From NCBI GenBank assembly GCA_030156615.1, contig JASGME010000002.1, positions 7,085 to 71,084 on the forward strand: a stretch of DNA of 64,000 bases. The letters run 5' to 3'. Numbering within the stretch: position 1 is the first letter of the stretch; each line of letters opens with the position of its first letter. The stretch comes from Candidatus Woesearchaeota archaeon (GTDB lineage: Archaea; Nanobdellota; Nanobdellia; Woesearchaeales; UBA119). A program made the position numbers and the translations under genes. The notes beneath the pieces were generated by a model. That model was not told the origin of the DNA. It made no database searches and saw nothing but the letters and a program-made list of their open reading frames with translations. Shown here in pieces: positions 29,701 through 46,022 of the stretch.

Positions 29701-30948
29701 TCAAAGCCCCTTCCTCTTGGTTTTCTTTTGAATTATGAAGAATAGTATTAATCCTATCACCACGATTAGCAATGTGAATATGATAGTAATAATATCGAAA
29801 TCTGTGGTTTTCCTATCATAAGAAGATTTATTATCCACGACATTTAAAATAGAGCCCTTCTCAAATGTAATCTTATCATTATAGTAAACTCTGCCCTTTA
29901 TTTTATATTGACCCTCTTGAGTTGGAGTAAAATACATCTCCAAAGGAATGACTTCTCCTGGACCAACCTCTATTTCTTCTGAATGTAGAATTTCTACTAT
30001 TTCCTCTCCTCGTGAAATGATTCCTTTATAATACGCATTAACCGTCCTGCTACCTTTATTCTTAAACTTCGCCTGAATAGGAACTATCTCATTCACAGAG
30101 GCCCATGGTTCATTCTCAATCCTAATAAGTTCACCATCATCCTTTATCTCCCCTTGATACAATACATCAAAAGTAATTATGTCACCTAAGTTACATTCTT
30201 CAGTTCTAATCCTAGCCCAATATTGTCCCGTTTCTAGATCAACATCAAATTTGGCAGAAATAGACTCGGATGCAGTCGGCAATATATCAAAAGGAGGAGT
30301 GTACTCCAAGTGTTCTACTTTAATGTCTTGTTGTTGATTTAATATTTCTATAATGAATGTTGGTCTTACCCTTACATTGCCTTTATTAATAACATTTGCA
30401 TAGAATACAAGGGGCTCATTCACCTCTGAACTCTGAATAGAGAATCCGCCGGCATCACAACTAAAAATCTGAGTATCATTTATATTTACATTTATTGTAA
30501 TTTCAAAGGCGGCCATAACATTTGCTCCCATCCTTTCAGTTATATTCCCAAGGTTACCTGTTGAAACTAAAACTTTTCCTTTATAATTCCCTACCGCAGC
30601 ATCCAGAGGAGGTTCTACTATTACCTTTATTTCTTTAGGAGAATCTTCATTAACCAAGACTGTCTGATTTGATGGCTCAAACCTAATCCAATCAGCAATT
30701 TCTCCTCTTGCTTCATAGGAAACCGCAACAGGTTTTTCAGTGCCAATAGAAACCTTAAAGGTATTTTCCGCATAACCACCTCTTAGCACATTATTGAAAG
30801 ATATTTCAGCTCTATTAACCCCAAGAAGAGCTGCTTCTGAGAAATTGCTATTGAATGGAAGGATCAATAAAAAAAGTGTTACTAACGCAAAAAGAAACTT
30901 GTTAGATATTTTCATGAACATTACCTCCCAAAATGAATAAGTCCTCAA
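29701..30948 (-). CDS. Cell-surface protein (signal peptide, beta-rich ectodomain, C-terminal TM anchor)
   Basis: Signal 'LFLLILPFNSNFSEA|A', C-terminal 'IITIIFTLLIVVIGLILFFIIQKKTKRKGL'. First gene of duplicated cassette A. Confidence 0.6.
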   Translation of the reverse strand: MRTYSFWEVMFMKISNKFLFALVTLFLLILPFNSNFSEAALLGVNRAEISFNNVLRGGYAENTFKVSIGTEKPVAVSYEARGEIADWIRFEPSNQTVLVNEDSPKEIKVIVEPPLDAAVGNYKGKVLVSTGNLGNITERMGANVMAAFEITINVNINDTQIFSCDAGGFSIQSSEVNEPLVFYANVINKGNVRVRPTFIIEILNQQQDIKVEHLEYTPPFDILPTASESISAKFDVDLETGQYWARIRTEECNLGDIITFDVLYQGEIKDDGELIRIENEPWASVNEIVPIQAKFKNKGSRTVNAYYKGIISRGEEIVEILHSEEIEVGPGEVIPLEMYFTPTQEGQYKIKGRVYYNDKITFEKGSILNVVDNKSSYDRKTTDFDIITIIFTLLIVVIGLILFFIIQKKTKRKGL

Positions 30949-30982
30949 AATAGTTATAATATACTTAAAACTTTTTATTTAA

Positions 30983-31885
30983 TCAAGGAGCAGTTGCTGT
31001 GAACCTTATTATTCCAGTACATCCCCCAAAAGGATTTGGAGGGACATATAACTGCCAATATGTGTTTTGAGTGATAGGATTATCTTCCGATGTTGGCTTT
31101 TGGATGGTGAATCCCATATCTTGAGATGTAGAAGCTAAAGGAATTTTGCTGTCCCATGCAACAAGAGATGATGAGAAACGCTGGTTTTCAACTGATATGT
31201 TCGAGCCCTGCTCGCAGACAAGACCAATTCCATCTCCCTCAACTTCTCCATAACCAAGAACACTAACGTTTATATACATATTGCCAAGGTTTGTTAATGT
31301 TGCAGTTATATTATCGCTAATATCGGTAACACTTAGTTCTCCATAATCAATTACATCTGTAACATTTAAAGCATAGAGAGCGTTTATACTTCCGTTCTCT
31401 GCTAATGAATCTTCATAACTTAGAGTATCGTTTACAGACACATTACAAGTCCAAGTTCCATTTTTAGCAAAGTATCGAACATCAAAAGTGCAGGTATAAT
31501 TAGCAAGGTATTGTCCATCATTACTAATTTCCACACATGTTGAGTCGGTGTAATGTTCATCTTCATCATCCGGATCAGACGATTTATTTAGGTAATAGTA
31601 TAAGGTAGCATTCACATTATCAATGTCATTGAAGCCGTTCCAATCCCTAATAGTTGCATTGCATGTAACTGTTTTGTACCCTCCAGCAGAGAGAACTACG
31701 GAATCCTCTGGCCTTACCTCTAAAACCTCTGGCCCGGCATTTGTAACATTTACTTTAGAAGTAACATTTACATGCTCATAGTTGTAAGCCAAAGAGGACG
31801 GAATTTCTAAGAAAGTTAAAACAAAGCTTAAGAGGAATATACCTAACAATGTTCTTCTCGTTTCCTTTTCAATTAATAGCTCCAT
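30983..31885 (-). CDS. Secreted protein, family A (~300 aa, conserved '...IRFTATAP' C-terminus)
   Basis: Sec-type signal peptide, many N-x-S/T sequons. About 65% identical to 43256..44152 over the full length ('YVNVTSKVNVT', 'TCNATIRDWNGFNDI', 'GDGIGLVCE', 'YWQLYVPPNPFG'). Confidence 0.65.
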   Translation of the reverse strand: MELLIEKETRRTLLGIFLLSFVLTFLEIPSSLAYNYEHVNVTSKVNVTNAGPEVLEVRPEDSVVLSAGGYKTVTCNATIRDWNGFNDIDNVNATLYYYLNKSSDPDDEDEHYTDSTCVEISNDGQYLANYTCTFDVRYFAKNGTWTCNVSVNDTLSYEDSLAENGSINALYALNVTDVIDYGELSVTDISDNITATLTNLGNMYINVSVLGYGEVEGDGIGLVCEQGSNISVENQRFSSSLVAWDSKIPLASTSQDMGFTIQKPTSEDNPITQNTYWQLYVPPNPFGGCTGIIRFTATAP

Positions 31886-31957
31886 TTTAACACCCTCTAC
31901 TATTTTCCACTTGTAAATTCTACTCTTATAAAAAAATAAAAAAATGTATGTCTCGAA

Positions 31958-32689
31958 TTACTCTATCTGGACATAAAAGTAATATGGAGTCGTTGCTTCA
32001 TCTGTTCCTTTTTCTCCAACCAATAGCTCGAAATGCCAAGGCAGATTGTTGAAGCCTGATATTGCAGAATCTTCAATGATTGTTGAATAAACTGTGTTAA
32101 CGCCATCACTCAAAAGTATCTGCCAGAATTCATCCGCTCCTTGTCCACCAGATGAATCATATGCCTTTGTTGAATAGCATCCTGCGATATTGGTTGAACC
32201 AATAATAAAGCTTGGATGACTAGTCAATGTGAAGGTGTTAGATACACTGTCTGGATCTGTTGAAGTCTGACCCAAAAAAGTCTCTTCCTGACTTACATGA
32301 GTATCGTTTGAGCAGTTTATTGTTGTCCAAGTTACTCCATTGCTTCTGCTAGCAAACACCTGTCCCGAAGGAACAGTTAGATTCCAATTATAAAAGTTGT
32401 TGCCAGATGCATCCGCTAATATTATCTCTCCAGTAACATTTCCGTAGAAACCCTGCCAATATTTTGTAACAGCTGTAGCATTCAAGGAAAGCTCTGTAAC
32501 ATTTCCTGCCACTGCATCCACCTGCTTCGGCGAGATTGCTGATGTGTCGTATCTCTCAGAGTTCTTTACCGTCGCGCTATCCACACCATATGGCTCATCC
32601 GCGGCAAATGCATTCCCAAAAGAAAATACAAAAAACAGGGATAACATTATGCCCAAAGTCGTCTTTCTCATCATAAATCTAAATTCCAT
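31958..32689 (-). CDS. Secreted protein, family B (~245 aa, 'W(Q/K)GY.GNVTG...L.DASG..(Y/F).W' core, 'YYF..(E/Q)I' C-terminus)
   Basis: Signal peptide 'GNAFA|ADEP'. Paralogous to 33609..34337, 44182..44961 and 45034..45795. Confidence 0.65.
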   Translation of the reverse strand: MEFRFMMRKTTLGIMLSLFFVFSFGNAFAADEPYGVDSATVKNSERYDTSAISPKQVDAVAGNVTELSLNATAVTKYWQGFYGNVTGEIILADASGNNFYNWNLTVPSGQVFASRSNGVTWTTINCSNDTHVSQEETFLGQTSTDPDSVSNTFTLTSHPSFIIGSTNIAGCYSTKAYDSSGGQGADEFWQILLSDGVNTVYSTIIEDSAISGFNNLPWHFELLVGEKGTDEATTPYYFYVQIE

Positions 32690-32737: not shown

Positions 32738-33361
32738 TTAGCTTTTCTCACCCCCTCTAAACTTAAGAGGATCGTAAATTGCATATAGCGAAGAAATTTT
32801 CTTCTTTGCTTCATTTTTTTTTAGTTCGGAAAACTCTATTTTCTTCTTTATCCCATGGAATGTCTTTATGATATCCGAAGGCAGTTCCTTCAATGTTTCA
32901 TTCTTAGGCAAAACAACAATTGAGATTTCGTTAGATGAAGAATTCTTATCATAATATATGCCAGAAATATCATCCAAGAAAGGAAGAAGTGCATTCAAAG
33001 CTTCTTCCATAAAAAACTGGGTTATTTCATCGTCATAAAGCCATATTCTCAGAATAGATTTCTTTCTAGGATCTAATTCAAGCAACTTCTTTTCAGCAAA
33101 TTCTTTAGTAACAACGACAAGATAAGCAAAATCCTTCTGCAATGAATATACTACTCTGGGCTGTCCCTTATCCCTATTAGGTATTCTCTTGCTTTTAACA
33201 AGCCCAGCAATCTCAAGCAAACGAAGAGCCTGACTTATGTTGGACATTGAAGTAGAACTTTTTGATGAAAGCTCGATTGGAGACATATCGGATTGTGAAA
33301 GCTCTTTGAGTACATCCCATTTAACTGAAGTAAAAAGCACTCCTTGTTCCATCATTACCAC
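32738..33361 (-). CDS. Winged-HTH transcriptional regulator embedded in cassette A
   Basis: 'MSNISQALRLLEIAGLVKSKRIPNRDKGQPRVVYSL' HTH-wing pattern. About 200 aa. Confidence 0.55.
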   Translation of the reverse strand: MVMMEQGVLFTSVKWDVLKELSQSDMSPIELSSKSSTSMSNISQALRLLEIAGLVKSKRIPNRDKGQPRVVYSLQKDFAYLVVVTKEFAEKKLLELDPRKKSILRIWLYDDEITQFFMEEALNALLPFLDDISGIYYDKNSSSNEISIVVLPKNETLKELPSDIIKTFHGIKKKIEFSELKKNEAKKKISSLYAIYDPLKFRGGEKS

Positions 33362-33608: not shown

Positions 33609-34337
33609 TTAAGAGATCTCTGCAAAGAAATAATATGTATTGTCTATATTAGTATCAGGGTTATCTGGCACAATCAATTGAAAATCGTAGGCTTTGTCAT
33701 CAAAGCCAGAAACAGAGGATTCTATAATTGTTGCATAAACTACATTCTGATTGTTATCTTCTAAAAGGATCTCCTGAAAGTTTGCATCTTCTGAAGATGA
33801 TTGTGCTTGGCTACTTATGTATGTAGCGATTGCCCTGCATGAACTTGGTTCTATTTTTTTAGTGCCTACAAAAAAACTCTTATGAACGGTTTCATTAAAT
33901 GTCTTGTTTATATTATCTGAGTTATCAGAGGAAATATTAAGAGCTGCCTGCTCTGCAAGAATAGTAGCATCGCTCAAACATTTTATCTCACTCCAACTGA
34001 TTGATGGGGAACGGGAAACATATACCTCTCCTGCTACTGAAACAAGATTCCAATCATAAATTGTGCTTCCTGATGCATCATCTAATGTTAATTTACCTGT
34101 TACATTTCCTACATAAGCTTTCCATCTAGGGGTTTGAAATGAACCATTCAACACCATTGTTGTGAAGCTTCCACCAGGAGTTGTGATAGAAGATGCTTCT
34201 GATTTTGGAGCTTCTTCAGTCACATTAGAAGAAAAACCTATTCCTTCAGGTTGTGCGAGGACAGAATAAGGAAATAATAAGAAAAACATTGCTAATATAC
34301 TAAACAAACCTATCAAAAAAACCTTTCCTCTTATCAC
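33609..34337 (-). CDS. Secreted protein, family B paralog
   Basis: Signal 'FPYSVLA|QPEG', 'WKAYVGNVTGKLTLDDASGSTIYDWNL', C-terminal 'YYFFAEIS'. Confidence 0.65.
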   Translation of the reverse strand: MIRGKVFLIGLFSILAMFFLLFPYSVLAQPEGIGFSSNVTEEAPKSEASSITTPGGSFTTMVLNGSFQTPRWKAYVGNVTGKLTLDDASGSTIYDWNLVSVAGEVYVSRSPSISWSEIKCLSDATILAEQAALNISSDNSDNINKTFNETVHKSFFVGTKKIEPSSCRAIATYISSQAQSSSEDANFQEILLEDNNQNVVYATIIESSVSGFDDKAYDFQLIVPDNPDTNIDNTYYFFAEIS

Positions 34338-34498: not shown

Positions 34499-35104
34499 TT
34501 ATTTTTGAAATATGAAAAGCTGGCCAATTGAGGTCTTAGAAGCACTATATTCTGTTCCATTCCTTGCATAACTGACAGAAAACAGAAGTATCTTTTCTAC
34601 TCCCTTTTCCATTTGGCTAGGACAATTAAATACCTGAGAATTCATGACATCAAGTGAGATATTTGTTGGTTTACAGTATTCCTCACCTAATTTGACATTT
34701 ACATAATCCAAAGGAAAATCATAGCGATTTGTAAGTTCAAGAGCAACAGAATTTTCGGACATATTTGATAGAGAACAATAGAAACCAATTACGCTGCAAC
34801 TTCCATGTCTTGCATACAACTCTTCAACAGGAGTCAAAAAATAATGTATCTTTTCGTATATCAGATATGAAAAAAGACATAAAACAAAGATAGATATGAA
34901 AAGAGCAACCCATACCTGTTTCTTTAAGGAGGTAGTGAGTGATTCTCTCTGATGCAACATAGAGATTGCTAAAACAATGCCTATTGGAGGGAAAATAAAG
35001 GCAAAAAGGTACATAAGTCTTACCTTCTTATCTAATAATCTTCTTTTCTTATTATAATGTTTCTTAGATTCAGCCATCTTAGCACCATTTGTTATAATTG
35101 ACAA
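34499..35104 (-). CDS. Hypothetical membrane protein (2 TM plus extracytoplasmic Cys-containing domain)
   Basis: Basic N-terminus, two TM helices, C-terminal domain containing 4 Cys. Confidence 0.5.
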   Translation of the reverse strand: MSIITNGAKMAESKKHYNKKRRLLDKKVRLMYLFAFIFPPIGIVLAISMLHQRESLTTSLKKQVWVALFISIFVLCLFSYLIYEKIHYFLTPVEELYARHGSCSVIGFYCSLSNMSENSVALELTNRYDFPLDYVNVKLGEEYCKPTNISLDVMNSQVFNCPSQMEKGVEKILLFSVSYARNGTEYSASKTSIGQLFIFQK

Positions 35105-35149
35105 AATCCATTCCTTATATATAACTATTTTGGAAATCTATTCTCTATT

Positions 35150-36850
35150 TTAAGTCTTAGTTTGTTTCTTTTTGTTCTTAAGACTTTTGGAATCATCAAT
35201 GGACATATTTATTTCATTTTCTGATTCTTTCTTTGCTTCTTCTAATTCTTCATATAAGTCCAGTTTGGAATTGTATGCCTGAGAGATTACCTTAAGGTTT
35301 GAAAGTAACTTTGAAAGCTCTGGATATTTCTCTGCACTAATCTGAACATCTTTATTATACTCAAGTTGATTTATATCATCAAGAAGTTCCTTCTCCAAAG
35401 ACTTTTGAGTCATCTCAGATTTATAAAGAACATATAACTTCTGAAGTTTTGTATATATGTCCATCAGAGCAGGTGTTGTTCTCATAAGCTCTGCAAACTC
35501 AGGCTTTTCCTCTAACTCTTTTATAGTCTCCATAATTTCCTTCTCAGTTTTCATAAGATGATGATCAACTATGCGGATCATGTTTTCTATGGCTTTTTCA
35601 TGCGTTGATGAGAGCCCCCTAATATTCTGTTTTTTTCTCTGTTCATTATACCCAAAGAGCCAAATGAAAAATGTCATCAGGATAGGGAAAAGCATTACTG
35701 ATAAAAGCAAATACCAGATGTACCCGAAGAAGCGATCTGGACAAGAAATAAAGAAATAGAAGTAGAGATAAGTTACAAATGCGATTCCGAATGCATTTAG
35801 CAAGAAGAGTCTATTCTTTCTTTTAAGGGAAGCAATCTCCCTTAGCTTTTCAAGCTCTTCTCCTTCTTCTTGATTTCTTATTTCTAAGAAAAGTTTTCTA
35901 ATCTTTCTTTTATTAAAAAGCACAAAAGAAGCAATAAAGGTAAAGAGTATTACGAAGAATAGAATAGAAGGCAAACTAAAAATATCCATTCGCAGCTCAC
36001 AGAAATCTATTGAACTCCTAGAAAAGATTCTTCTAGGCTCCTCTTCAACAACAGTTTTATTCCCTTCTTCAGTCTCATTCACAGGAGGCTGATAAACACA
36101 ATCTTCAATCTCTGGAGGTTTTGATTTGTTTGTACCACATTCATTCAAGTCAATGCATTCTCTTTTCCTTATGCCTTCAGGCAGGCAGGGACCCCAATCA
36201 GAACAAATCCAGTTCTCAACGCATTCTTCTTCCTCCTCCTTGACAAAAGTCGGGCCTTCTAATTCACCACCTTTTGTTGAACTTCCTTCTAAAGAACCTT
36301 CGGGTCTTTCTCCTCCAGAGGGTACTTTCTCCAACCCTTCTGCTTCTCCAGGAACAAATTGACAAGGACCGCAATCCTCTGGACAATTATTACAATTCTC
36401 TACCCTAATATCACAAAATCCATCACCGCAAACAGCAGGCGGAGCAGTTAAATCTACTCGCTGAAAGGCTCCCTCAGACCAAATTACATCTACTGTCAGA
36501 TTATTTATTGAGGCAGACGCCGGATATGTTCCTATCTTGAAACGAATTTTCTCTCCTGAAGAGGGACCAGTATTGTCATTTAGTAGCATAGCACCCTTAC
36601 AGGTAAGAACACCATAATGACCTTCATTAACTATTTCAAATGTTCCGCAGATATTTCCATCAGCATCTAAAGCAGTTATTTTGGTTCCAACCTGAGCCGG
36701 TTCGTTAAAAAGAAAAGCATCACCATAAAGCTCCATAGGCAAAGGAGGATGGATTGCATAAGAAGAAAAAGAAGTCAAAGGGATTAAAAACAAAAGCCCA
36801 ACTAGGAAAAAGAACATATTCTCCTTCCTTTTGGCTATTTTTGTTTTCAT
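35150..36850 (-). CDS. Cys-rich surface protein with TM and cytoplasmic coiled-coil tail
   Basis: Signal peptide; compact Cys modules 'CGDGFCDIRVENCNNCPEDCGPC' and 'CVENWICSDWGPCLPEGIRKRECIDLNEC'; TM 'ILFFVILFTFIASFVLF', a second hydrophobic pair, then a K/E-rich coiled coil. Confidence 0.6.
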   Translation of the reverse strand: MKTKIAKRKENMFFFLVGLLFLIPLTSFSSYAIHPPLPMELYGDAFLFNEPAQVGTKITALDADGNICGTFEIVNEGHYGVLTCKGAMLLNDNTGPSSGEKIRFKIGTYPASASINNLTVDVIWSEGAFQRVDLTAPPAVCGDGFCDIRVENCNNCPEDCGPCQFVPGEAEGLEKVPSGGERPEGSLEGSSTKGGELEGPTFVKEEEEECVENWICSDWGPCLPEGIRKRECIDLNECGTNKSKPPEIEDCVYQPPVNETEEGNKTVVEEEPRRIFSRSSIDFCELRMDIFSLPSILFFVILFTFIASFVLFNKRKIRKLFLEIRNQEEGEELEKLREIASLKRKNRLFLLNAFGIAFVTYLYFYFFISCPDRFFGYIWYLLLSVMLFPILMTFFIWLFGYNEQRKKQNIRGLSSTHEKAIENMIRIVDHHLMKTEKEIMETIKELEEKPEFAELMRTTPALMDIYTKLQKLYVLYKSEMTQKSLEKELLDDINQLEYNKDVQISAEKYPELSKLLSNLKVISQAYNSKLDLYEELEEAKKESENEINMSIDDSKSLKNKKKQTKT

Positions 36851-37576
36851 TTACCAGTCCACAACAAGTTCAACATCTTTTGTAAGGTTTATCCAATAGG
36901 CTTCTCCTGGCTCCATTGTTGAAAGATTTCCTTCTTCTGTTAATGGATTATAGTACATCCAGTTTCCATTCCGATAGGTTTCGATAATTGTATAGTTTCC
37001 TTCAATAGAAGAAAGAACTTCAGATATGTTTTTTTGAATGCCAATTGGATAACTCAGAAGGTTCCAACCTTTATTGAGACTCATTCGAGTAACCTTGAAA
37101 TGATAACCTTGATTAAAGAATGTTTGATTTTCTTCCATAATAATAATGTAACCATGTTTCCTATCAATCTCACCAAGAGCCTGAATTGTCCAGTTAGGTA
37201 GAACTGGATTGTAACTATGCCAAGGATCATCTGCTTCATCAGAAACATAAGAATAAATTGCTAAATAATTCAGGGATTCATTGTTGATGTCTCTAAGAGT
37301 TGAGTTTAACTGAGATCCATCGGGGATACAATAAAAACTTACAAGATTAATACCTTCTTTAAGATTAATTGAACAATTGTATGGCTTGGTTTCGTATATG
37401 AATGCTCTGGCAGTAATAAAGCCAGTTATGGATGAATGAATTTGCTCTTTAAAGACAAAATAAAAGAATGAGAGGGTCAATACAATCAAAATTAACATAG
37501 TCAAGGTTATCTTAAGACGCATTTTAAGCACACCTACATTTCTTATTGAATAACAGAGAAGGGATAATTTAAACAT
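36851..37576 (-). CDS. Secreted/anchored hypothetical protein
   Basis: N-terminal TM/signal 'ITLTMLILIVLTLSFFYFVF', beta-rich sequon-rich body. Abuts the upstream gene with no spacer. Confidence 0.55.
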   Translation of the reverse strand: MFKLSLLCYSIRNVGVLKMRLKITLTMLILIVLTLSFFYFVFKEQIHSSITGFITARAFIYETKPYNCSINLKEGINLVSFYCIPDGSQLNSTLRDINNESLNYLAIYSYVSDEADDPWHSYNPVLPNWTIQALGEIDRKHGYIIIMEENQTFFNQGYHFKVTRMSLNKGWNLLSYPIGIQKNISEVLSSIEGNYTIIETYRNGNWMYYNPLTEEGNLSTMEPGEAYWINLTKDVELVVDW

Positions 37577-37715
37577 TTCGTTTGTTCTTGAACAAGAAAA
37601 TCATAAAAATCCTGGCTAATATCACATCAGCGTTGGTATGAATTTCAGGAAACAGGAATTTGTATAAGTAAGAATGCGCTAGATTTAAAACAAAAATTGT
37701 GAATTTGTGCCTAAG

Positions 37716-39488
37716 TTATCTCAAAGGTTGCTTGCATTTCTTGCATGTTTTTCTTAAAATCGGATTTTTATATCCACAATTCTTGCATTTTTTCTTTGGC
37801 AAGATCAATAAAAGCAGGATAACAATAAGAGCTATCAGAACATATACTGCAAAGTCAGGAGAAGAGTACTTAAATTCAAACACAGAGATAATACTCTTGA
37901 TTAAAGCAGTTTCCCTTTGACCATAGAGAACCCTGACATTTATTTTTTCATTGTTTGCTATATCTTCTTCAGCAAGTTCAACAGGAACAAATATTTCTCC
38001 AGATTTGCCTTTTTCAATGGAAATAGTCTTCTCTGAGCCATATACTCCATACTGCGTATTTACATATAAATCAAATATCTCAGCTGCAGCATACGCATCA
38101 ACTTCTCCTATATTCTTAACTTTTATATAGAAGCCCTTATCTCTTTTAGAATAAACTACTTCAAGAAGTTCAATAGATGCCTCATCCATAACATTCACTT
38201 TCTCAACAACAAGTGTCTTTTCCAGAGTTTGCTCTAAAGATTTTGCAGATTCTCCATAGATAATGCTTATATCAAGGGTAATATTATCAGAGCCCTGGAA
38301 AGGTATGTCATTTCCTTCAGCATCTTTCAAATCAAAGACTGTGGTTTTAAATGAATTACCATCAATAAAAGTCGGATCTGAGTCATCAGGGATAACATAG
38401 GATTCTTCATCAAGATTAAGCCTGATAAGGATATTCTGAAAATAGCTACCAATCTCAGCCAGATTATGATATGTAATTTCCAACTGAGCTGTGGCAGTAT
38501 TAATCGTAGCTGCGATAACATCAATATTTAAGTTATAAACAGGTAAGGGGAACCTATCTAAATCTTCTACACTTGCTACAGGACCTGTTGGAGCCCTTGC
38601 TCCCTGACCGAATTTGACAAAGACACTCAATCCAGTCTGACGCTTAACAAATGTCGCTGTTCCTATGAGTTCATTTCCAATCAAGGTCCCTACTTCAAAG
38701 GCACTTTTTTCAATATAATCTCTCACCTGTTGAGGAACATTTGAGTAACCAATAAACAGAACTGGGTCTACCCCTGTAAAAAAACTTGCTTCAATAAATT
38801 CGCCATTGGTAAGCAACACCTGTTTCCTCGGGCCACCTTTCAATTCCTCATGAAGCTCCTGATACATCTTTGTAATCTCTATATTATCGTCAAAGCGATC
38901 GCCAGTATTTATAATAATCGGATCATATTTGGCAAATCTCTCTCTTACAGTCCTATCTAATATTCCATATAAAATCATCTCTTCAACAGTTCTATCTGAA
39001 AGGGCAGCATCAACCCTTGGAAGATTGGTTTCATCAACGAACAATACATAATAATTACCAAGAACAGCAAAAGGTGCTACAGAGATTGCATTATATCCGT
39101 AAGATGGATCAATAATTATAAAACGGGTAATTTCTGGTAGTTCTTCTAATAAGTCAAGATTGAATTCGTTAGAACGAATCTCTACAACATTATCAAAACC
39201 ATCAGACATAAGAATACTTTGATAATTATTTACAAAAGGATTTCTTATAGAGCTATAAATCCTTATTTCTTCAACATCCCTCGGGATTTGATTAACCATT
39301 AATTTAGCATGACTTGTGCTTGTAAGAAAATTGGCATTATAACTTTTAAGACTACCGAATAACATTACTGAGTAGACATCTTTCCAATCAGCGGAGTTGG
39401 CTATCAGTCGAGGAGCAGCATACACACCAGGTAAAAATTGAAGGCCTAAAAGAAAGACAAAAATCAAAATCCATGCTCTTTTATTCAC
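37716..39488 (-). CDS. Surface protein with C-terminal TM followed by a cytoplasmic zinc-ribbon
   Basis: Signal 'LLGLQFLPGVYA|A', about 540-aa ectodomain, TM 'FAVYVLIALIVILLLLIL', then 'PKKKCKNCGYKNPILRKTCKKCKQPL' (CxxC...CxxC). Confidence 0.6.
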   Translation of the reverse strand: MNKRAWILIFVFLLGLQFLPGVYAAPRLIANSADWKDVYSVMLFGSLKSYNANFLTSTSHAKLMVNQIPRDVEEIRIYSSIRNPFVNNYQSILMSDGFDNVVEIRSNEFNLDLLEELPEITRFIIIDPSYGYNAISVAPFAVLGNYYVLFVDETNLPRVDAALSDRTVEEMILYGILDRTVRERFAKYDPIIINTGDRFDDNIEITKMYQELHEELKGGPRKQVLLTNGEFIEASFFTGVDPVLFIGYSNVPQQVRDYIEKSAFEVGTLIGNELIGTATFVKRQTGLSVFVKFGQGARAPTGPVASVEDLDRFPLPVYNLNIDVIAATINTATAQLEITYHNLAEIGSYFQNILIRLNLDEESYVIPDDSDPTFIDGNSFKTTVFDLKDAEGNDIPFQGSDNITLDISIIYGESAKSLEQTLEKTLVVEKVNVMDEASIELLEVVYSKRDKGFYIKVKNIGEVDAYAAAEIFDLYVNTQYGVYGSEKTISIEKGKSGEIFVPVELAEEDIANNEKINVRVLYGQRETALIKSIISVFEFKYSSPDFAVYVLIALIVILLLLILPKKKCKNCGYKNPILRKTCKKCKQPLR

Positions 39489-39658: not shown

Positions 39659-39832
39659 ATGGGAAGAAAGCAATTAAATATCAGACTTGACGAAAAGATT
39701 CACAAAAGAGCAAAGATAGCTGCAATTCTTAAAGGAGAGACTCTTAATTCTTACATAGAAAAAGCCATTCTTGATGCTCTAGAAAAAGATGATAATAAAG
39801 ATAAGATAGACAATATTGAAAATGAAAATTAG
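39659..39832 (+). CDS. Ribbon-helix-helix (CopG/antitoxin-like) small protein
   Basis: 57-aa ORF not in the supplied track: 'MGRKQLNIRLDEKIHKRAKIAAILKGETLNSYIEKAILDALEKDD...', the RHH pattern (beta-strand 'LNIRLDE', then two helices). Its stop overlaps the start of the giant gene. Confidence 0.45.
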   Translation: MGRKQLNIRLDEKIHKRAKIAAILKGETLNSYIEKAILDALEKDDNKDKIDNIENEN

Positions 39833-42800
39833 GATAAAAGAGAAGAAGGAATCAGAGAAAGGGATAGCATACAAAGAAATAACATTCTTGCCATTCTTAA
39901 TTCTCTTTTCATTAGTTTTTATTCCTTCATTAGGCTTAGGATTGGAAATAAACATCATAAATTCATCTTTAAACAGCTCAGGTAATATATTTGATATAGA
40001 ACCTACTGATTTATATTACATCATAAATGAAAGTGATATTTTGAACATAGAGTTAAATGTTTCAAATTCTAATGGAAATGTTAATTTCTCTGTCAACTCT
40101 ACAGACGCAAATATTAGTAATTCCAATACAACTGCAAATTTGAACTTTACCTTAGAAGAATTCTGCGAAATAGGCACAGATGAGAAAAACTATACAATCA
40201 AAGTTATAGCTAAAGACAGCACTAATTCACCTGCTTATAAGGATATTAACATAACAGTTTTAAGGGTGAATGAAGAGCCAATTATAAACAATACTTACAT
40301 AAACGATGATCCTTATGAGAATGATGTAGAGGTAATTTCTGACGAAATAACAATCAGGCTTTCAACCAACTCTAGTTATGAATGCAGATATGATTATTCA
40401 AATAAGAGCTTTGAGGAGATGAAATATGAATTCGAATTCCAATCAACATCAAACACAGAATACGAATACGAAGCAATATTTAAAAATCTAGAGCAGAAAT
40501 CCTATTCAATTTTTATCAGGTGTATTGACGAATGTGGCAATTATATGAAAGAACCAAAAGAGATTAAGTTTGATGTAAATCTTCCTCCAAGTGCAATGAT
40601 AAGTCTATATCCTAAACCGCCTTTAAAGGAGGGGAGAGTTAACGTAGAATTGAGCGCTTCGGAGCCCCTTGCTTCTGCACCTGAACTTACATATACTTTT
40701 GATAATGACAGAACTCCAAAGCCAGTATATCTTGAAGGTGAAGGAAAATACTGGAAAGGCTACCTAGTAATAAGAGAAGAGAATGTTGAGAAAATAGGAA
40801 GTTTCAGTTTCAAAGGCTATGATACAACTGGGATTGAAGGAACAGAAATAAAAGATGGAAAAATCTTCTTGGTTGATACAATACCGCCAGAAAGAATTGA
40901 AAGCTTGAGGATCGAAAATCAGCAAGACAGAATAAGATTGGTATGGAGCTACCACACTGATAACGACATTGAAGAATATAAGATATACAGAAGGAAGGGA
41001 AGTGGAGGCACTGATGTCATTGATTACTATGATACAACAGACGACACATATTACTATGATAAAGATGTTGAATTTAACGAGGCATATTATTATAGGATAA
41101 GTGCTGTTGATGAAGCTGGAAATGAAGGAGAACTTTCCAAGGAAATCTTTATTACATTCAGACCTGAAAAACTTGAAGAACTAGAGGAAAGCGATGAAGA
41201 TGAAAAAGAAGAAATTGCGAAGGAAGAAGAAAAACTTAAGCCAACATTGATGACAGAGTTAGAGAACATATTATCTGAGATTGATACTTTTCTATTAGAT
41301 ATAAGAGGGAAAATTGAAGAGTTTAAAAGAACAAAAGACAAAGATAAGATAACTGTTATTGAGAACCTTATGATTCTGGAAGAACTTAAAGGAACAGAAC
41401 AAAGACTTTCCACATTGAGAAACGAGATGGCGAAGCTCGAGAACCAGAGTCTAAGCGATAGTGAATTTGATAGCATTACCAAAAATTTAATTGAAGAAGC
41501 AAGAGAAGAATGGGAGAACTCTATAAAGTACATAAGTATTGAAGATTCTGAGAAATATGAAGAGGATATTGATGATGAAAAGACTACATTGGTTTTTAAA
41601 GAATACCTTGCTGAAGAGGATATTGAAGCAGATGAGAAGATAATAAAAGAGGTTGCAATAGCACAAGATAGTATAACAATTGAAACTCAGATATTTGATG
41701 TTATATTAAATACCTTTGGGAATCAATCAAAAAATTATCTATTAGTTAAGAAGGACATAAGCAGTTCACAAAAGATATCAGAAGCGATAATATTGGAATG
41801 GATTCCAGTTGAATTGAAAGGAAAGATTCAAGAGGTAGAGCTATTGGTTCAGGGAGAGGAGGTTATAAAAAATAATCTATATCGTTGGAATAAAAAAGGA
41901 CTCACAAGTTTTTCATTGGCATACATTATTAAAGGAGATATTCGGCCAGTTGATTTGAAAGACTCAAAGGCAATAATATTCAACAATGAACTACTAAAGA
42001 ACATTTCAAATGCTAATGAAAATCAGATAACTGGAGCACACTCAACAGATGTTGAAAAAAATGAAGAGCTGCATCCACTTTTCATACCAACAATTACTGC
42101 GATTATTATTGCTGCATTCTTACTTTTATATTACTTATTCGTTGTCAAAAAAGAGAATTCTATTGGGAAAATAAAAAGAGAAGAAAGAGAGGAATCAGAC
42201 AAAAGACTTAAGATAAATGATTCAAAAGAAGAGGAAATTAGAGAAGATGAAAAGATTGCAACAACGAAAGAAAAGACTTCAAAAGATGTAAAAGATATAA
42301 TATTACAAAGAGGTGATATAAAAATGAAAAAAGAAGATGAACATCCTATGATTAGTATATACTCTTACTTAGAGAATTTTAAAGAGAATCTTGAGAACAA
42401 GGACGAAATAGGATTAAACGAGAGTGAGATTATAAAAGAGAATGCAAAGAAGATACAACTGCTCTGCAAGGAAATTATTGCTATAAATACAGAAAAGCAT
42501 GCAGAGACCACTAAAAGATACATACTAAAAGCACTTAAACAGATTGAGGAAAATAAAGAATATAAACCTAAAGAAGAAAATAATGCAACAAAGCACAAGA
42601 TAGGATTAGAGAAAAGAAAGCTCCTTGTGAAAAAAGGGATTGAAAAAAAGAATAAAGAAGAAAATGCTAAAAATGGAACTAAAAAAGATAACAATTTTGA
42701 AGAAAAGAATAAAGAAAATAAAAAAGATAGGATTATGATCTCTCCTGAAGGCAAGGAGTTTAGACTAGCGAACGGAGAGCTTATCAGGAGCACAAATGAG

Positions 42801-42989
42801 TTGGTTGAAAAGCTTGAAAAGATGAAAGACGAAACATTCTCCCACCACATCCGTGAAATTAATGGAGAAACAAGAAACGACTTTGCAATATGGTTAAGAG
42901 ATGTATTTGGCTTTGAAGATGACTTCCCAAATATGAATAAAATAAAAGACAGAGTTGAATTCTTAGAAAAGATAAAGGAAATTTTATAG
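39816..42989 (+). CDS. Giant single-pass surface protein (ectodomain with FN3 domain, coiled coil, TM, K/E-rich cytoplasmic tail with conserved C-terminal module)
   Basis: Track start 39816 is TTG; ATG at 39822 is more likely. FN3-like block 'IENQQDRIRLVWSYHTDNDIEEYKIYRRKG...YYYRISAVDEAGNEGELSKEIFITF'. TM 'ITAIIIAAFLLLYYLFVV' at about aa 750. C-terminal module 'EGKEFRLANGELIRSTNELVEKLEKMKDETFSHHIREINGETRNDFAIWLRDVFG' is shared with the 52584..56531 ATPase. Confidence 0.7.
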   Translation: MKMKIRIKEKKESEKGIAYKEITFLPFLILFSLVFIPSLGLGLEINIINSSLNSSGNIFDIEPTDLYYIINESDILNIELNVSNSNGNVNFSVNSTDANISNSNTTANLNFTLEEFCEIGTDEKNYTIKVIAKDSTNSPAYKDINITVLRVNEEPIINNTYINDDPYENDVEVISDEITIRLSTNSSYECRYDYSNKSFEEMKYEFEFQSTSNTEYEYEAIFKNLEQKSYSIFIRCIDECGNYMKEPKEIKFDVNLPPSAMISLYPKPPLKEGRVNVELSASEPLASAPELTYTFDNDRTPKPVYLEGEGKYWKGYLVIREENVEKIGSFSFKGYDTTGIEGTEIKDGKIFLVDTIPPERIESLRIENQQDRIRLVWSYHTDNDIEEYKIYRRKGSGGTDVIDYYDTTDDTYYYDKDVEFNEAYYYRISAVDEAGNEGELSKEIFITFRPEKLEELEESDEDEKEEIAKEEEKLKPTLMTELENILSEIDTFLLDIRGKIEEFKRTKDKDKITVIENLMILEELKGTEQRLSTLRNEMAKLENQSLSDSEFDSITKNLIEEAREEWENSIKYISIEDSEKYEEDIDDEKTTLVFKEYLAEEDIEADEKIIKEVAIAQDSITIETQIFDVILNTFGNQSKNYLLVKKDISSSQKISEAIILEWIPVELKGKIQEVELLVQGEEVIKNNLYRWNKKGLTSFSLAYIIKGDIRPVDLKDSKAIIFNNELLKNISNANENQITGAHSTDVEKNEELHPLFIPTITAIIIAAFLLLYYLFVVKKENSIGKIKREEREESDKRLKINDSKEEEIREDEKIATTKEKTSKDVKDIILQRGDIKMKKEDEHPMISIYSYLENFKENLENKDEIGLNESEIIKENAKKIQLLCKEIIAINTEKHAETTKRYILKALKQIEENKEYKPKEENNATKHKIGLEKRKLLVKKGIEKKNKEENAKNGTKKDNNFEEKNKENKKDRIMISPEGKEFRLANGELIRSTNELVEKLEKMKDETFSHHIREINGETRNDFAIWLRDVFGFEDDFPNMNKIKDRVEFLEKIKEIL

Positions 42990-43042
42990 AACAGTTTTAT
43001 AATGTTATCTATATAGAAAGGTTGATAATGATAAATGCACAG

Positions 43043-43215: not shown

Positions 43216-43255
43216 GTACAATAATAGACATAAAAGAAATTTTAAGTTAATACAT

Positions 43256-44152
43256 TCATGGAGCAGTGGCCGTGAACCTTATTGTTCCGCTACATTCTCC
43301 AAATGGATTAGGTGGAACATATAACTGCCAATAGCTTGACCATATCACGGGATTTATTTCCTCTGTTGCCTGCGGTATTGTAATATTCATATCCTGCGCC
43401 GTTGAAGCAAGAGGAATTTTGTTGTCCCAAGGCACATCATAACCAGAGAATCTTTCGTTCTCAACACTGATATTATCGCCATGTTCACACACCAAGCCAA
43501 TACCATCTCCTTCTATCATTCCATAGCCAAGAACACTTACATTTATGTCCATATTACCAAAGTTTGTGATATTGGCTGTTATATTGTCACTTGTTTCCAT
43601 GACCGCCAGATCTCCGAAGTCAATCACATCAGTTACATTCAAAGCGTAAAGGGCATTTATAATGGTTGAATTATCGGCTGAATCTGTGAATCCGTATGTA
43701 TCCTCTGCAGTTACATTGCAACTCCAACTCCCATTATTTGCAAAATACGCTAATGTAAAAGAACAGGCATAGTTTGCTATGAATTCGCCATCATTACTAA
43801 TCTCAACGCAGCTTCCATTAGTATAATGCACATTCCTATGATCAGGATCGGATGATTCATTTAGATAGTAATAAAAAGTACCATTAACTTTGGAGATGTC
43901 ATTGAAGCCGTTCCAATCCCTGATTGTCGCGTTGCATGTTATTGTTGTATTACCTCCTGCATTCAATGTAATGTCCTGCTCAGCCTCAACAGAAAGAATC
44001 TCCGGCATTGCATCTGTTACATTGACTTTGGAAGTTACATTAACATACTCATATTTATAGGCTTCAACAAATGAAGGGAAAAGGAAAAACAGGCAAAATA
44101 ACAAAGCTAACACTCCAAGCATCCTAAATTTGTTTTTTGTATTTATTCCCAT
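43256..44152 (-). CDS. Secreted protein, family A paralog (cassette B)
   Basis: About 65% identity to 30983..31885, same C-terminal '...GTIRFTATAP'. Confidence 0.65.
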   Translation of the reverse strand: MGINTKNKFRMLGVLALLFCLFFLFPSFVEAYKYEYVNVTSKVNVTDAMPEILSVEAEQDITLNAGGNTTITCNATIRDWNGFNDISKVNGTFYYYLNESSDPDHRNVHYTNGSCVEISNDGEFIANYACSFTLAYFANNGSWSCNVTAEDTYGFTDSADNSTIINALYALNVTDVIDFGDLAVMETSDNITANITNFGNMDINVSVLGYGMIEGDGIGLVCEHGDNISVENERFSGYDVPWDNKIPLASTAQDMNITIPQATEEINPVIWSSYWQLYVPPNPFGECSGTIRFTATAP

Positions 44153-44181
44153 TTCAAATGCCTCTAGTTGAATTGTTTATT

Positions 44182-44961
44182 TTAATCAGCAATCTCCGCG
44201 AAAAAGTAATATGTTGTCGTGGCATCAACTTTATCTGGAATCATTATCTGAAAATCTACTTTTGCCCCTGTACGATACGAATCGCTTCCTTGATTTATTG
44301 GGGAAGCATATACTACATCTGTTTCAGATGCTAACAGCACAACAGGGAAATCGGCTGAGGCTTGGGCCTGAACACTATCATTTACATAGGTACTGGTACT
44401 TCTACAGCTATCTGACGGGATTGTGACTGATCCTACAATTAATTCAGGATGCTTTGTTTCGTTGAATGTTCTATTTATGCTGTATGCTGAGGCTGAGGAA
44501 AAACCCATATATGTATCTTCACTTGCAAGAACCGTTTCGTTTGAACACTCGATTGATGTCCAACTTGGCTCCATCTGTCTTGAAACATATACCTCTCCTG
44601 TTAGATCGGTGGATTCAAGTTCCCATTGATAAATAGAGTAACCAGATGCATCTTGTAAGACTAATGTTCCGGTAATGTTTCCTACATAAGCTTTCCAATA
44701 ATCATTCTGCTGTGTAAAATCCACTCCTAAAGTAGTTATGGTTCCTCCTTCATCAGAACGATTGTCTGGGGAAGCAGTTTGTTTGGATTCTGTGAAGTTT
44801 GAAACAATAGACATTCCCTCTGGTTCTGCAGTTACAAAACTAGTGATTAAAGACATTACAGAAATTACAGAGAGCATAATCAAAAATAAAGAAGATGACA
44901 CTCCGTCGTTGACAAGAGATGCTCCTTTTTTCCTCTCCGTTTCTTTTAAAGCATTATTCAT
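44182..44961 (-). CDS. Secreted protein, family B paralog (cassette B)
   Basis: 'WKAYVGNITGTLVLQDASGYSIYQWEL', C-terminal 'YYFFAEIAD'. Confidence 0.65.
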   Translation of the reverse strand: MNNALKETERKKGASLVNDGVSSSLFLIMLSVISVMSLITSFVTAEPEGMSIVSNFTESKQTASPDNRSDEGGTITTLGVDFTQQNDYWKAYVGNITGTLVLQDASGYSIYQWELESTDLTGEVYVSRQMEPSWTSIECSNETVLASEDTYMGFSSASAYSINRTFNETKHPELIVGSVTIPSDSCRSTSTYVNDSVQAQASADFPVVLLASETDVVYASPINQGSDSYRTGAKVDFQIMIPDKVDATTTYYFFAEIAD

Positions 44962-45033
44962 TTTTATACCCCGCCGACCTATTTCACTTTAAAATATTAA
45001 AATTAAATAAAAAAATAAAAAAATAAAGGAGAT

Positions 45034-45795
45034 TTATTCAATCTCCAACCAAAAGTAATATGGAGTCACTTGATTATCTGCGTTGTGACCATTCTCTGCA
45101 ACTAATATCTGGAAATCATAGTTTTTTCCATCATAACCAGTAATGCCTTGTCTTTGTCCTTCAGTTTTATCTTCCAAAATAGCTGTAAAGATTAATGTTG
45201 AGTTGGAATCGCTGGCTAGAAGTACTGCCGGAAAATCTGTGCTTTGGCTTGCGTTGTTTATGAATGTATAAGCTGTTTGGCAGTTGTTTAAGGTAGTATA
45301 CCCAACATAAAACTCTGGATGATTAGTATAATTATAGGTATCGTTTATATCATCATAATCGCTTTCTATCATTCCGTAGAAGTTATACCAATTGGCCCTA
45401 TAATTAGGATCATCGCTAATAGGAGCGCAGTTGATATCTGTCCATGTAATAGTACTGTTTACTGAAGTAAAGACCTCTCCCTGAGGCTCGGCAACAGACC
45501 AATCATAAAACCTAAATCCAGATGCATCTGCTAAGATTATCTCGCCTGTAACATTTCCGAAGTAACCTTGCCATGATTGCGTCTGAGAAACACCAGTTAT
45601 ATCAAGTTCTGTTAGGTTACCTGCAATAGCATCCACTGAATCAGGGATATATAAGCTGTTGTTTGAATGCTCACTTCTTACAACATCAGCTTTTTCTGCT
45701 CCTAATGGAACATTCTGAGCTGTTCCTAAATAAACTGAAAAAAGCCCTATCAGAACAAAAGAAATTACAAAAACCGTTCTATTATCCATTTCCAT
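45034..45795 (-). CDS. Secreted protein, family B paralog (cassette B)
   Basis: Track ORF extends to 45960. The internal Met at 45795 ('MEMDNRTVFVISFVLIGLFSVYLGTAQN') gives a family-typical size (about 253 aa) and signal peptide. 'WQGYFGNVTGEIILADASGFRFYDWSV', C-terminal 'YYFWLEIE'. Confidence 0.6.
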   Translation of the reverse strand: MEMDNRTVFVISFVLIGLFSVYLGTAQNVPLGAEKADVVRSEHSNNSLYIPDSVDAIAGNLTELDITGVSQTQSWQGYFGNVTGEIILADASGFRFYDWSVAEPQGEVFTSVNSTITWTDINCAPISDDPNYRANWYNFYGMIESDYDDINDTYNYTNHPEFYVGYTTLNNCQTAYTFINNASQSTDFPAVLLASDSNSTLIFTAILEDKTEGQRQGITGYDGKNYDFQILVAENGHNADNQVTPYYFWLEIE

Positions 45796-46022
45796 AATAT
45801 CCACCTCTTTTATCTTGTTTTTGATTTTAAAAGTCAGTTTTTGAGGAATTCCAAGGAGCACATAGGCTCTCTCGACTTTTCTCAAAACTGCTTTAATCAA
45901 CAGATATACATAAAAGCACACCAATATATAAATTTTTCTGTTTTGGAGACTCATATACAAAATCTTCTCATAAAATTAAAAAGATATACAAGAGAAACTA
46001 AGAAAATAACTTTTGAAAAGGA

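Follow-up and report, generated by a model that had tools for sequence, protein, structure and literature searches.

Two paralogous triads of secreted beta-sandwich proteins in a Woesearchaeota genome, candidate subunits of a cell-surface assembly

We describe here two families of small secreted proteins, A and B, encoded in a 64,000-nucleotide stretch (hereafter the window; position 1 is its first nucleotide) of contig JASGME010000002.1 from a Candidatus Woesearchaeota metagenome-assembled genome (MAG), the window having a GC content of about 34%. Neither family has been described before, and in almost every locus examined their genes follow one canonical order, B-alpha, B-beta and A, a triad that the window carries in two anciently diverged versions. 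In our reading, A and B are structural subunits of a cell-surface assembly specific to this lineage and also serve it as plug-in modules, an interpretation to which we give about an even chance of being correct. Few of the uncultured DPANN archaea are as widespread as the Woesearchaeota, tiny cells that presumably live attached to other microbes; to our knowledge, nothing is known of their envelope or contact structures. The literature that we searched on the surface layer (S-layer) of Woesearchaeota, donor strands and DUF87 proteins in DPANN archaea, and Nup98 in archaea yielded nothing describing these genes.

The initial annotation of the window, made from its sequence, had proposed that two families of secreted proteins are duplicated here, and in this it was right: the open reading frames (ORFs) that it named are all present, every one on the minus strand, and the likeness within each family is real homology rather than shared composition, as pairwise alignment and hidden Markov models (HMMs) both show. 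The two A genes, which had been put at about 65% identity, align end to end over 298 codons with 65.0% nucleotide and 63.4% amino acid identity (phmmer E = 4e-127), and the four B genes share 32–39% identity with the first copy, 39 invariant columns and pairwise E values of 1e-26 to 1e-48. Further copies were sought by running the family HMMs for A and B over every ORF of the window, which returned exactly two genes for A and four for B; a protein of 1315 amino acids at 52584–56531 contains, in addition, part of a B domain. The six genes are as follows.

30983–31885, minus strand: A1, family A copy 1 (300 amino acids), 100% identical to a protein of a Ca. Woesearchaeota MAG, locus tag PWQ87_122.
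31958–32689, minus strand: B-alpha1 of cassette 1 (243 amino acids), of the orthogroup linked to a winged helix–turn–helix (wHTH) gene, with a signal peptide, an arm carrying P33 and G35, and a sandwich ending in 'YYFYVQIE'.
33609–34337, minus strand: B-gamma (242 amino acids), which by neighbour-joining tree and gene context is the orthologue of a B gene paired elsewhere with the small gene c7, and not the B-beta1 of the triad.
43256–44152, minus strand: A2, family A copy 2 (298 amino acids), an ancient paralogue of copy 1.
44182–44961, minus strand: B-beta2 of cassette 2 (259 amino acids), 29 bp upstream of A2.
45034–45795, minus strand: B-alpha2 of cassette 2 (253 amino acids), assigned by neighbour-joining tree and family alignment; the alignment sets its start at the ATG at 45795, and the ORF itself extends to a TTG at 45960.

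The earlier description of these as secreted surface-protein families without known function also holds, as no Pfam or NCBIfam family covers either of them: A gave no match, and no family recurred over 60 B members even at E values up to 10. When the A and B profiles were compared with PDB sequences (all of them in the case of B) only noise was returned. Relatives are nevertheless numerous, with 245 for A and 851 for B in a word-indexed search, and when the B profile was searched exhaustively, 1417 representatives of clusters (50% identity) matched at E ≤ 0.001, 491 of them at ≤ 1e-30. Nearly all those with a name bear the label Woesearchaeota, Nanoarchaeia or Nanoarchaeota; one B match is labelled Bacteroidota. 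A viral origin was considered and set aside, as no relatives of A or B were found among the viral contigs of IMG/VR and the best match of the B model among the viral structures of BFVD has E = 0.33. Scanning the GTDB species genomes with the family A alignment gave 61 loci, usually two per genome, nearly all of them in Woesearchaeota or Nanoarchaeota MAGs, some of these being mislabelled bins.

For gene context, we clustered all ORFs of the collected loci and counted adjacencies among 64 loci (individual loci carry L numbers below). The order B-alpha, B-beta, A recurs in almost all of them, two or more times per genome, and the triad genes of the window lie on the same strand with gaps of only 29–72 bp; copy number differs among lineages, reaching three tandem A genes and six or seven B genes per locus. 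The shared assembly role once suggested for the two families thus survives in another form, with the triad as the conserved unit. That the window holds two paralogous cassettes is also borne out, but they are not colinear copies of one another: cassette 2 reads B-alpha, B-beta, A, and cassette 1 reads B-gamma, wHTH, B-alpha, A, p415. Cassette 1 thus departs from the canonical order through a rearrangement: B-beta1 is absent, B-gamma lies upstream of the wHTH gene and a gene termed p201 stands where c7 stands elsewhere, an arrangement shared with L004 and L005.

The duplication itself is old. In a codon alignment, A1 and A2 have saturated synonymous sites (synonymous divergence pS 0.74, nonsynonymous divergence dN 0.29), and the B pairs have pS 0.65–0.72 and dN 0.62–0.78. 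Trees (neighbour-joining, midpoint-rooted) agree: among 67 A proteins of related genomes, A1 falls together with those of L004, L006 and L008 whose genes stand before p415, and A2 with the A genes of L007, L009, L010 and L011, each of which is followed by a divergent p1057 gene, as is A2 itself. The B proteins of the window's clade fall into five orthogroups, B-alpha1, B-alpha2, B-beta1, B-beta2 and B-gamma; B-gamma is normally paired with c7, a small helix–turn–helix protein, and B-beta1 is found neither in the window nor in L004 and L005, its two closest relatives. Thus A1, A2, B-alpha1, B-alpha2, B-beta2 and B-gamma each cluster with orthologues from other genomes and not with their twin in the window, which, together with the saturation of synonymous sites, argues for an ancient duplication of the triad and against a recent segmental event. 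We do note that the two A paralogues of one genome (L020 and L021) are each other's closest relatives, which leaves room for lineage-specific re-duplication or gene conversion in some lineages.

These data bear directly on the reading of the locus as a diversifying or antigenically variable repertoire, generated by recent segmental duplication and linked to ABC (ATP-binding cassette)/YhgE-Pip transporters. The presence of two cassettes and five B-type domains in the window, and the variation of A and B copy number by lineage, might be so explained, but A orthologues remain 45–85% identical across Woesearchaeota, paralogues keep to their own orthologues at the divergences given above, and a cassette adjoins an ABC pair in only 2 of the 64 loci. 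We regard the repertoire as largely refuted and very improbable; the sequences indicate instead that each copy has been under long purifying selection in a fixed and distinct role.

What kind of proteins these are is suggested by their sequences and by structure models. The cysteines are invariant, six in A and two in B, and A1 carries 14 N-glycosylation sequons and six cysteines at invariant columns. Per 100 amino acids, A has 4.7–5.4 sequons (A1 4.7) and B 2.5–3.6, where the median for the window is 0.84; from this we infer that both are probably heavily N-glycosylated. The AlphaFold2 model of A (alignment of 73 sequences; mean predicted local distance difference test, pLDDT, 93; predicted template-modelling score 0.76) has an N-terminal hydrophobic helix, an arm at residues 33–50 and two Ig-like (immunoglobulin-like) sandwiches at about 52–167 and 173–298. 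The helix is followed by an AxA-like site and is taken as a signal peptide of Sec type. As measured by per-column information content, the most conserved segment of A is 'TYWQLYVPPNPFGxC'. Foldseek matches of A in the PDB are generic tandem-sandwich proteins only (FimH, CfaE, CsuE, RbmA, integrins, transglutaminases), with template-modelling (TM) scores of about 0.2–0.38.

The B model (alignment of 60 sequences) comprises a signal peptide, an arm at residues 30–63 with pLDDT below 50, and one beta-sandwich of about 180 amino acids; its pLDDT is 79 overall and above 90 for most of the core at residues 111–230. B is without a recognisable fold relative: the best Foldseek match in the PDB has E = 0.44, and none of 150 PDB matches reaches E = 0.001. 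The weak neighbours are PL7 alginate lyase, CBM3c of GH9 cellulases and adenovirus fibre knobs, with probability ≤ 0.08 and TM score ≤ 0.22. The best reading of both families, as far as sequence can tell, is that of Sec-exported, disulfide-bonded, non-enzymatic structural proteins.

B might instead bind carbohydrates, its sandwich recognising glycans of the host or of the cell itself, and act either in soluble form or mounted on large adhesins, without polymerising. Its weak structural neighbours are indeed glycan-binding or jelly-roll proteins, it has conserved aromatic and polar residues (W78, Y100, W102, W121, D93, R115, H158, Q183), and it is placed C-terminally on beta-helix and Ig-repeat proteins (see below) as carbohydrate-binding modules are. 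Yet the fold matches are at the low scores just given, one would not expect a simple lectin to come in two subtypes strictly paired with A and with membrane-anchor genes, and the existence of five fixed orthogroups speaks for distinct structural positions. We therefore think a lectin-like role improbable.

The C-terminal motifs of both families had been singled out as strictly conserved and as possible donor strands, and hence as the basis of a shared assembly role. They are conserved between the copies in the window, but across the families no more so than other core strands: only the window's clade has 'RFTATxP', which 21 of 67 A proteins match, with F295 and A297 invariant in the 73-sequence alignment, and the C-terminus of B has 2.4–2.7 bits against 2.0–2.65 in its core strands. 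In the models both motifs are the last intramolecular strand of a sandwich, 'IRFTATAP' as strand E292–298 (pLDDT 96), the final strand of domain 2 of A, and 'YYFxxEI' as strand E237–242 of B (pLDDT about 84–89). They do not, then, look like donor strands; candidates for strand exchange, if there are any, would be the N-terminal arms. The arm of A ('NYxNVxVxTxVNITN') is conserved like the core (2.5 bits) and lacks secondary structure when modelled as a monomer, and the arm of B holds the invariant P33 and G35 and has otherwise 1.0–1.6 bits, against 2.0–2.65 in the core.

Such arms invite comparison with filaments built by strand complementation, and here a further gene near cassette 1 is of interest.

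28201–28716, minus strand: a divergent candidate signal peptidase I of archaeal/SipW type (171 amino acids) with the motifs 'TDSMKPTF' and 'IIHRVV'.

This protein matches TIGR02228 at E = 2.5e-7 (30.7 bits, against a cut-off of 51.85) and no Pfam family; its homologue in L009 matches TIGR02228 at 3e-11 and SipW at 3e-6. Homologues lie beside the cassettes in L004, L005, L009, L010 and L021, which with the window makes 6 of 64 loci, and longer homologues (322–339 amino acids), again with a SipW match, lie inside cassette 2 of L009, L010 and L021. Single linkage had grouped the 171-residue protein with B, but it does not belong to that family. Archaeal TasA-like genes are reported to have signal peptidase I genes, and further paralogues of TasA-like type, as neighbours (PMC12518558).

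It is conceivable, then, that B-alpha and B-beta polymerise head to tail by insertion of their N-terminal arms without a chaperone, that A caps or tips the fibre in the manner of a chaperone–usher tip adhesin, and that the SipW-like peptidase, dedicated to this task, matures the subunits. Several paralogous, small, Sec-exported beta-sandwich subunits per locus would suit such a filament, as would a B arm that is disordered in the model and yet keeps its P33 and G35, even in fusion proteins, and an A arm that is conserved like the core, unstructured in the monomer and mostly missing from larger A proteins. FimH, CfaE and CsuE are among the top Foldseek matches of A, the peptidase has the TasA-like precedent just cited, and this class of filament needs no assembly ATPase. 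Several observations run the other way. An hhalign comparison of the B profile with TasA (PDB 8AUR) gave a probability of 0.4%, no Peptidase_M73 match was found in 60 B members, and no TasA, AbpA, thread or cannula structure is among the best 50 of the 150 Foldseek PDB matches of B, so that membership of the TasA superfamily was rejected at the sensitivity of these comparisons. Outside its PxG motif the B arm shows little conservation, each monomer is modelled as a complete sandwich whose terminal strands are confident, and the fusion proteins have this arm inside the chain, as a linker with no free N-terminus. On balance we consider a strand-complemented filament unlikely.

Returning to the reading of A and B as subunits of a surface assembly, we find that the two triads are parts of a larger supercluster, which is present in nearly all related genomes sampled. 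Its typical order begins with a giant Ig-repeat gene, C-long, B-alpha, B-beta and A; further on come p1057 and a ribbon–helix–helix (RHH) gene, both on the opposite strand, then, in some genomes only, B-gamma and c7, also on the opposite strand. The order continues with p590, a gene for an AbrB-like protein of 53 amino acids, p241, p566 and the wHTH gene, and closes with B-alpha, B-beta, A and p415. In the window, the genes around and between the triads are as follows.

29701–30948, minus strand: p415, with a signal peptide, an Ig-like ectodomain (weak CARDB match below cut-off) and a C-terminal membrane anchor.
32738–33361, minus strand: winged-helix regulator (207 amino acids) with an ArsR/Lrs14-like N-terminal domain (ArsR/SmtB 2e-6, Lrs14 3e-6, both below cut-off).
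34499–39488, minus strand: the genes upstream of cassette 1, p590, p241, p566 and p201, with no Pfam or NCBIfam family above cut-off.
34499–35104, minus strand: p201, a small membrane protein of 201 amino acids.
Within 34499–39488, minus strand: p590, with a signal peptide, an ectodomain, a transmembrane segment and a Zn-ribbon tail.
36851–37576, minus strand: p241, with an N-terminal transmembrane segment and a sequon-rich domain.
Within 34499–39488, minus strand: p566, with a signal peptide, a cysteine-rich ectodomain, transmembrane segments and a cytoplasmic coiled coil.
39659–42989, plus strand: divergent unit of the RHH gene and p1057.
39659–39832, plus strand: RHH protein (HicB-like, 2.6e-8; 57 amino acids), directly upstream of p1057 and overlapping its start.
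Within 39659–42989, plus strand: p1057, a bitopic protein with an Ig/FN3-like ectodomain, a cytoplasmic coiled coil and a DUF5752-like end containing 'NDFAIWLRDVF'.

Much of this context is shared widely. A is directly followed by p415 in 22 loci (the gap to A1 in the window is 34 bp); p415, with its C-terminal anchor, is the constant downstream partner of A and the candidate membrane tether. The wHTH gene heads the cassette 1 triad in most genomes, the order wHTH, B, B, A occurring in 31 loci; the synteny of p590, p241 and p566 is kept in 29–32 loci, the RHH gene in 21 and p1057 in 28. Four of these proteins, p415, p590, p566 and p1057, are membrane-anchored with beta-rich ectodomains, and none belongs to a curated family above threshold; p590 and p415 gave only noise against PDB sequences. 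The sequon density of p241, 3.7 per 100 amino acids, is the fourth-highest in the window. We also compared the A and B profiles with those of 14 other supercluster families by hhalign, with marginal matches only, on which we do not rely: the N-terminal part of A matched p241 with 76% probability over 53 columns, and B matched p566 with 56%, in overlapping signal peptides.

The ABC transporter pairs, by contrast, which the initial annotation had placed near each cassette, do not belong to the conserved neighbourhood. One pair does lie next to cassette 2.

46023–48733, minus strand: ABC-2 exporter pair 2, a DrrA-like ATPase and a permease with a large extracytoplasmic coiled-coil loop.

Cassette 2 is directly downstream of it on the same strand, and the two ABC pairs of the window are, as had been recognised, paralogues, and old ones (ATPases 41% identical, permeases 27%). 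Pair 1 (14043–17038), however, is 12.7 kb from cassette 1, and the genes scanned in between include housekeeping ones, among them those for RFC, NFACT and histidine phosphatases. Nor do the permeases appear to be YhgE/Pip proteins: they match Pfam ABC2_membrane_3 and ABC2_membrane and, weakly, the NCBIfam models SagH, DrrB and RbbA permease only, with no YhgE/Pip model of NCBIfam among the matches, and both have ABC-2 architecture. Among the 64 loci a cassette adjoins an ABC pair only in the window and in its closest relative, L011, and in L069 the pair is the divergent neighbour of an ATPase operon (see below) and not of a cassette; the transporter is thus not a conserved partner of the cassettes, and a functional tie between them is not supported. 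An ArsR-type wHTH gene (17093–17668, minus strand; HTH_20, 2e-11) lies directly upstream of pair 1, which abuts an eRF1 gene (12864–14030), and this supports pair 1 as an independent, separately regulated exporter.

Beyond cassette 2 and pair 2, the window carries an operon for an ATPase and, running off its end, the gene of a giant surface protein.

49166–56531, plus strand: operon of c27, p1049 and p1315, with counterparts conserved in L067–L069.
49166–49429, plus strand: c27, a protein of 87 amino acids.
Within 49166–56531, plus strand: p1049, a bitopic protein with PKD (8e-9) and CarboxypepD_reg domains.
52584–56531, plus strand: p1315, a HerA/FtsK-type ATPase with an N-terminal transmembrane segment, an ectodomain, a second transmembrane segment, a DUF87 P-loop domain and two DUF5752-like repeats (4e-8).
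57969–64000, plus strand: giant Ig-repeat surface protein (more than 2010 amino acids, running off the window end) with Big_13 (1e-28, seven stretches) and Big_7 (1e-12, three stretches).

The partial B domain found by the HMM lies in the ectodomain of p1315, where residues 160–262 match positions 130–240 of the B HMM, the C-terminal half of B, at E = 1e-12; the extracellular part also contains a CarboxypepD_reg domain. Its DUF87 domain (PF01935) scores E = 1.1e-11, 45.7 bits against a cut-off of 23.2, and its homologues carry PF01935, some of them also PF05872; the best NCBIfam matches, CedD and TraC, are weak and confined to the P-loop. The protein is 53–74% identical in most of the Woesearchaeota homologues listed. 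In L067–L069 the operon consists of an RHH gene, a gene for a protein of 82–89 amino acids, a PKD protein of about 1000 amino acids, the ATPase (about 1200–1440 amino acids), two further genes and a giant adhesin. The RHH gene and the 87-residue gene form a pair that heads the operon elsewhere, of which the window retains the latter, and in the window the operon is followed by two coiled-coil proteins and then by the giant Ig-repeat ORF. By synteny, this ORF (sequon density 5.0 per 100 amino acids) is the counterpart of adhesins of 3000–7000 amino acids that follow the ATPase operon in other genomes. Single linkage by BLAST had joined it to family A through generic Ig repeats, but the A HMM gives no match to it and we rejected this assignment.

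The operon is linked to the triads in several ways. In L002 and L014 the giant Ig-repeat protein directly precedes C-long, B-alpha, B-beta and A, that is, cassette 2, and a JGI contig has both the ATPase operon, from about 252 kb, and cassette 1 with p415, up to about 304 kb, a span of about 52 kb. In addition, a C-terminal motif, '(F/L)xxxNGxxxxxxxELxxxLxxMxxxxFxxHVxxxKNDF(A/S)xW(I/F)R', with a weak match to DUF5752, is common to p1057 (42800–42989), p1315 (55800–56531) and C-long, a cytoplasmic coiled-coil protein with a DUF5752-like tail (6993–7901 in L002), and may be a docking module common to the three. C-long had been linked to B by single linkage, apparently through this tail, which it has in common with p1315, and was not accepted as a B member.

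From these links one could picture a machine spanning the envelope, in which triads, giant adhesin and bitopic coiled-coil proteins are driven by p1315, and with which a presumed symbiont attaches to its partner and moves macromolecules such as DNA. We think this rather unlikely, and are equally doubtful of its more specific form, in which p1315, with its part-B outer domain, and the bitopic proteins with the DUF5752-like module would nucleate or drive a Woesearchaeota-specific conduit of A and B tipped by the giant adhesin. The half B module outside the membrane joined to a DUF87/HerA-FtsK ATPase inside it, the conservation of that ATPase, the giant adhesin at the end of the L067–L069 operon and ahead of cassette 2 in L002 and L014, the proximity of operon and cassette 1 on the JGI contig and the common cytoplasmic motif would all fit such a machine. 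Against this, A and B have ordinary Sec signals and can do without an exporter of their own, a pilin or a VirB-like or Ced-like partner is lacking, the ATPase resembles known translocases only around its P-loop, and co-localisation could reflect a general 'surface island'.

The modules of the triad also occur on much larger proteins. Of the best 149 of the 1417 B representatives, 29 are proteins of 350–2359 amino acids that end in the B module, complete with its PxG arm, as their extreme C-terminal domain, the arm motif persisting in forms such as 'PSGANVTF' and 'PVGATVDF'; the passengers include beta-helix/NosD domains. The A module similarly forms the C-terminal domain of proteins of 485–1583 amino acids in deeper Woesearchaeota lineages (A-long, in L022, L028, L031, L034, L038, L040, L049, L059–L061 and L063), covering HMM positions of about 45–300 and often in the order A, A-long, p415. 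Of 14 such larger A proteins, 12 match the HMM only from position 36 onward (starts at 36–54), so that the arm is largely or wholly missing.

Eight of ten larger B proteins scanned have, upstream, a domain resembling the Nup98-type S59 family PF04096, at borderline scores of 21–31 bits against a cut-off of 28.4, and the strict motif 'HFSxYS' occurs in 5 of the 29 large B proteins, about 120–160 residues before the B module. The proteins with this domain come from other metagenomes and Nanoarchaeota MAGs, and P0281, P0292, P0299, P0328 and P0339 are among the large B proteins noted. Among eight large proteins that were looked up, two are named, one from an 'archaeon' MAG and one from a Nanoarchaeota MAG, and two gene contexts (L065, L066) lie outside the supercluster. 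The domain was not found in the window or in the 64 loci, and we found no description in the literature of a Nup98-type autopeptidase domain on archaeal surface proteins.

Fixed co-encoding, export, the lack of an enzymatic signature, evolutionary constraint, membrane-anchor neighbours and C-terminal reuse together lead us to regard A and B as structural subunits, and the bitopic Ig/PKD/FN3 neighbours and the giant Ig-repeat adhesin count as further support for a surface assembly. One B-alpha, one B-beta and one A would co-assemble outside the cell into a repeating scaffold, lattice or fibre, which the bitopic proteins p415 (encoded directly after A), p590, p566 and p1057 would hold to the membrane. 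The C-terminally fused A and B modules would be plug-in domains by which large passengers dock onto this scaffold, and the two triads would yield two fixed, non-interchangeable variants of it. Some considerations weigh against this model. Archaeal S-layer and filament genes are usually single or in simple operons, and a cluster of 50 kb that includes several regulators and a pumping ATPase would be unusual for them; the weak neighbours of B in structure space (alginate lyase, CBM3, fibre knobs, at probability ≤ 0.08) would fit a glycan-binding domain equally well; and conserved gene order suggests an interaction between the products but is not proof that they co-assemble.

A set of duplicated hypothetical proteins has become a defined candidate system, with two previously undescribed families, a fixed three-gene module and a supercluster of about 50 kb. 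Genome annotators gain two new family definitions, and the triad and the p1315 ectodomain are concrete targets for structural work. If the system is a device for cell–cell contact, the connection between DPANN archaea and their hosts becomes directly testable, and should it span the envelope, B would also be a new fold class of self-assembling surface module; if it is simply an S-layer or matrix fibre, it still fills a blank in the diversity of archaeal envelopes.

Several known systems share features with this one. In the larger B proteins, 'HFSxYS' is identical to the HF|S self-cleavage site of Nup98/Nup96 (Peptidase S59), but the scores are borderline, the motif is well ahead of the B module and no such domain occurs in the window or the 64 loci. 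The C-terminal domains (CTDs) of type IX secretion are, like the fused A and B modules, compact beta-sandwiches at the very C-terminus of diverse large passengers (beta-helix, Ig repeats); unlike them, our modules have 200–250 amino acids rather than about 80–100 and abundant stand-alone forms, there is no outer membrane and there are no type IX secretion genes, and no homology was seen, no test aimed at it having been made. Type IV pilins and archaellins differ in having class III signals, those of A and B being hydrophobic segments with an AxA-like site after them and thus of Sec type, and no PilB/FlaI or PilC family is found in the cluster.

The tip adhesins of chaperone–usher pili (FimH, CfaE, CsuE) resemble A in having two tandem sandwiches, with Foldseek E values of about 2e-5 to 2e-4, and small single-domain subunits are encoded beside a two-domain one in both systems. 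The TM scores are only 0.31–0.38, however, with root-mean-square deviations of 9.5–15 Å, integrins, transglutaminases and RbmA score similarly, and the host is a single-membrane archaeon. Rather than the incomplete Ig folds of chaperone–usher subunits, the A and B models have confident intramolecular strands at their ends, and library scans of the neighbours found no chaperone or usher family, with one weak CooC_C match below cut-off.

The SlaA/SlaB S-layers of Sulfolobales are N-glycosylated and built of Ig-like and beta-sandwich domains, with an outer component that lacks an anchor and a partner with a C-terminal transmembrane anchor. A followed by p415 resembles such a pair of unanchored and anchored proteins. 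The present subunits differ from these and other archaeal S-layer proteins in their size (about 240–300 amino acids), in being of three types in at least two paralogous sets and in having regulators within the cluster, and no sequence relationship was found.

The closest parallel is with the TasA superfamily (TasA, AbpA/AbpX, the Sulfolobus 0406 threads and Pyrodictium CanA/CanX). Its members are also Sec-exported beta-sandwich or jelly-roll subunits of about 20–30 kDa, glycosylated in archaea, with several paralogous subunits per locus and no assembly ATPase, and the unfolded N-terminal arms of the A and B monomer models are a further likeness. Their genes often have a signal peptidase I gene next to them (PMC12518558), to which the divergent SipW-like candidate, beside cassettes in 6 of 64 loci, may correspond. 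They differ in that no similarity to them is seen in sequence, profile or Foldseek comparisons, in that the A and B monomers are modelled as already complete sandwiches, and in having no counterpart to a two-domain A or to a 50-kb context with bitopic proteins and an ATPase. Judged by analogy, the Woesearchaeota system resembles chaperone-free strand-complemented filaments most, and may work in a similar way without being a member of that superfamily.

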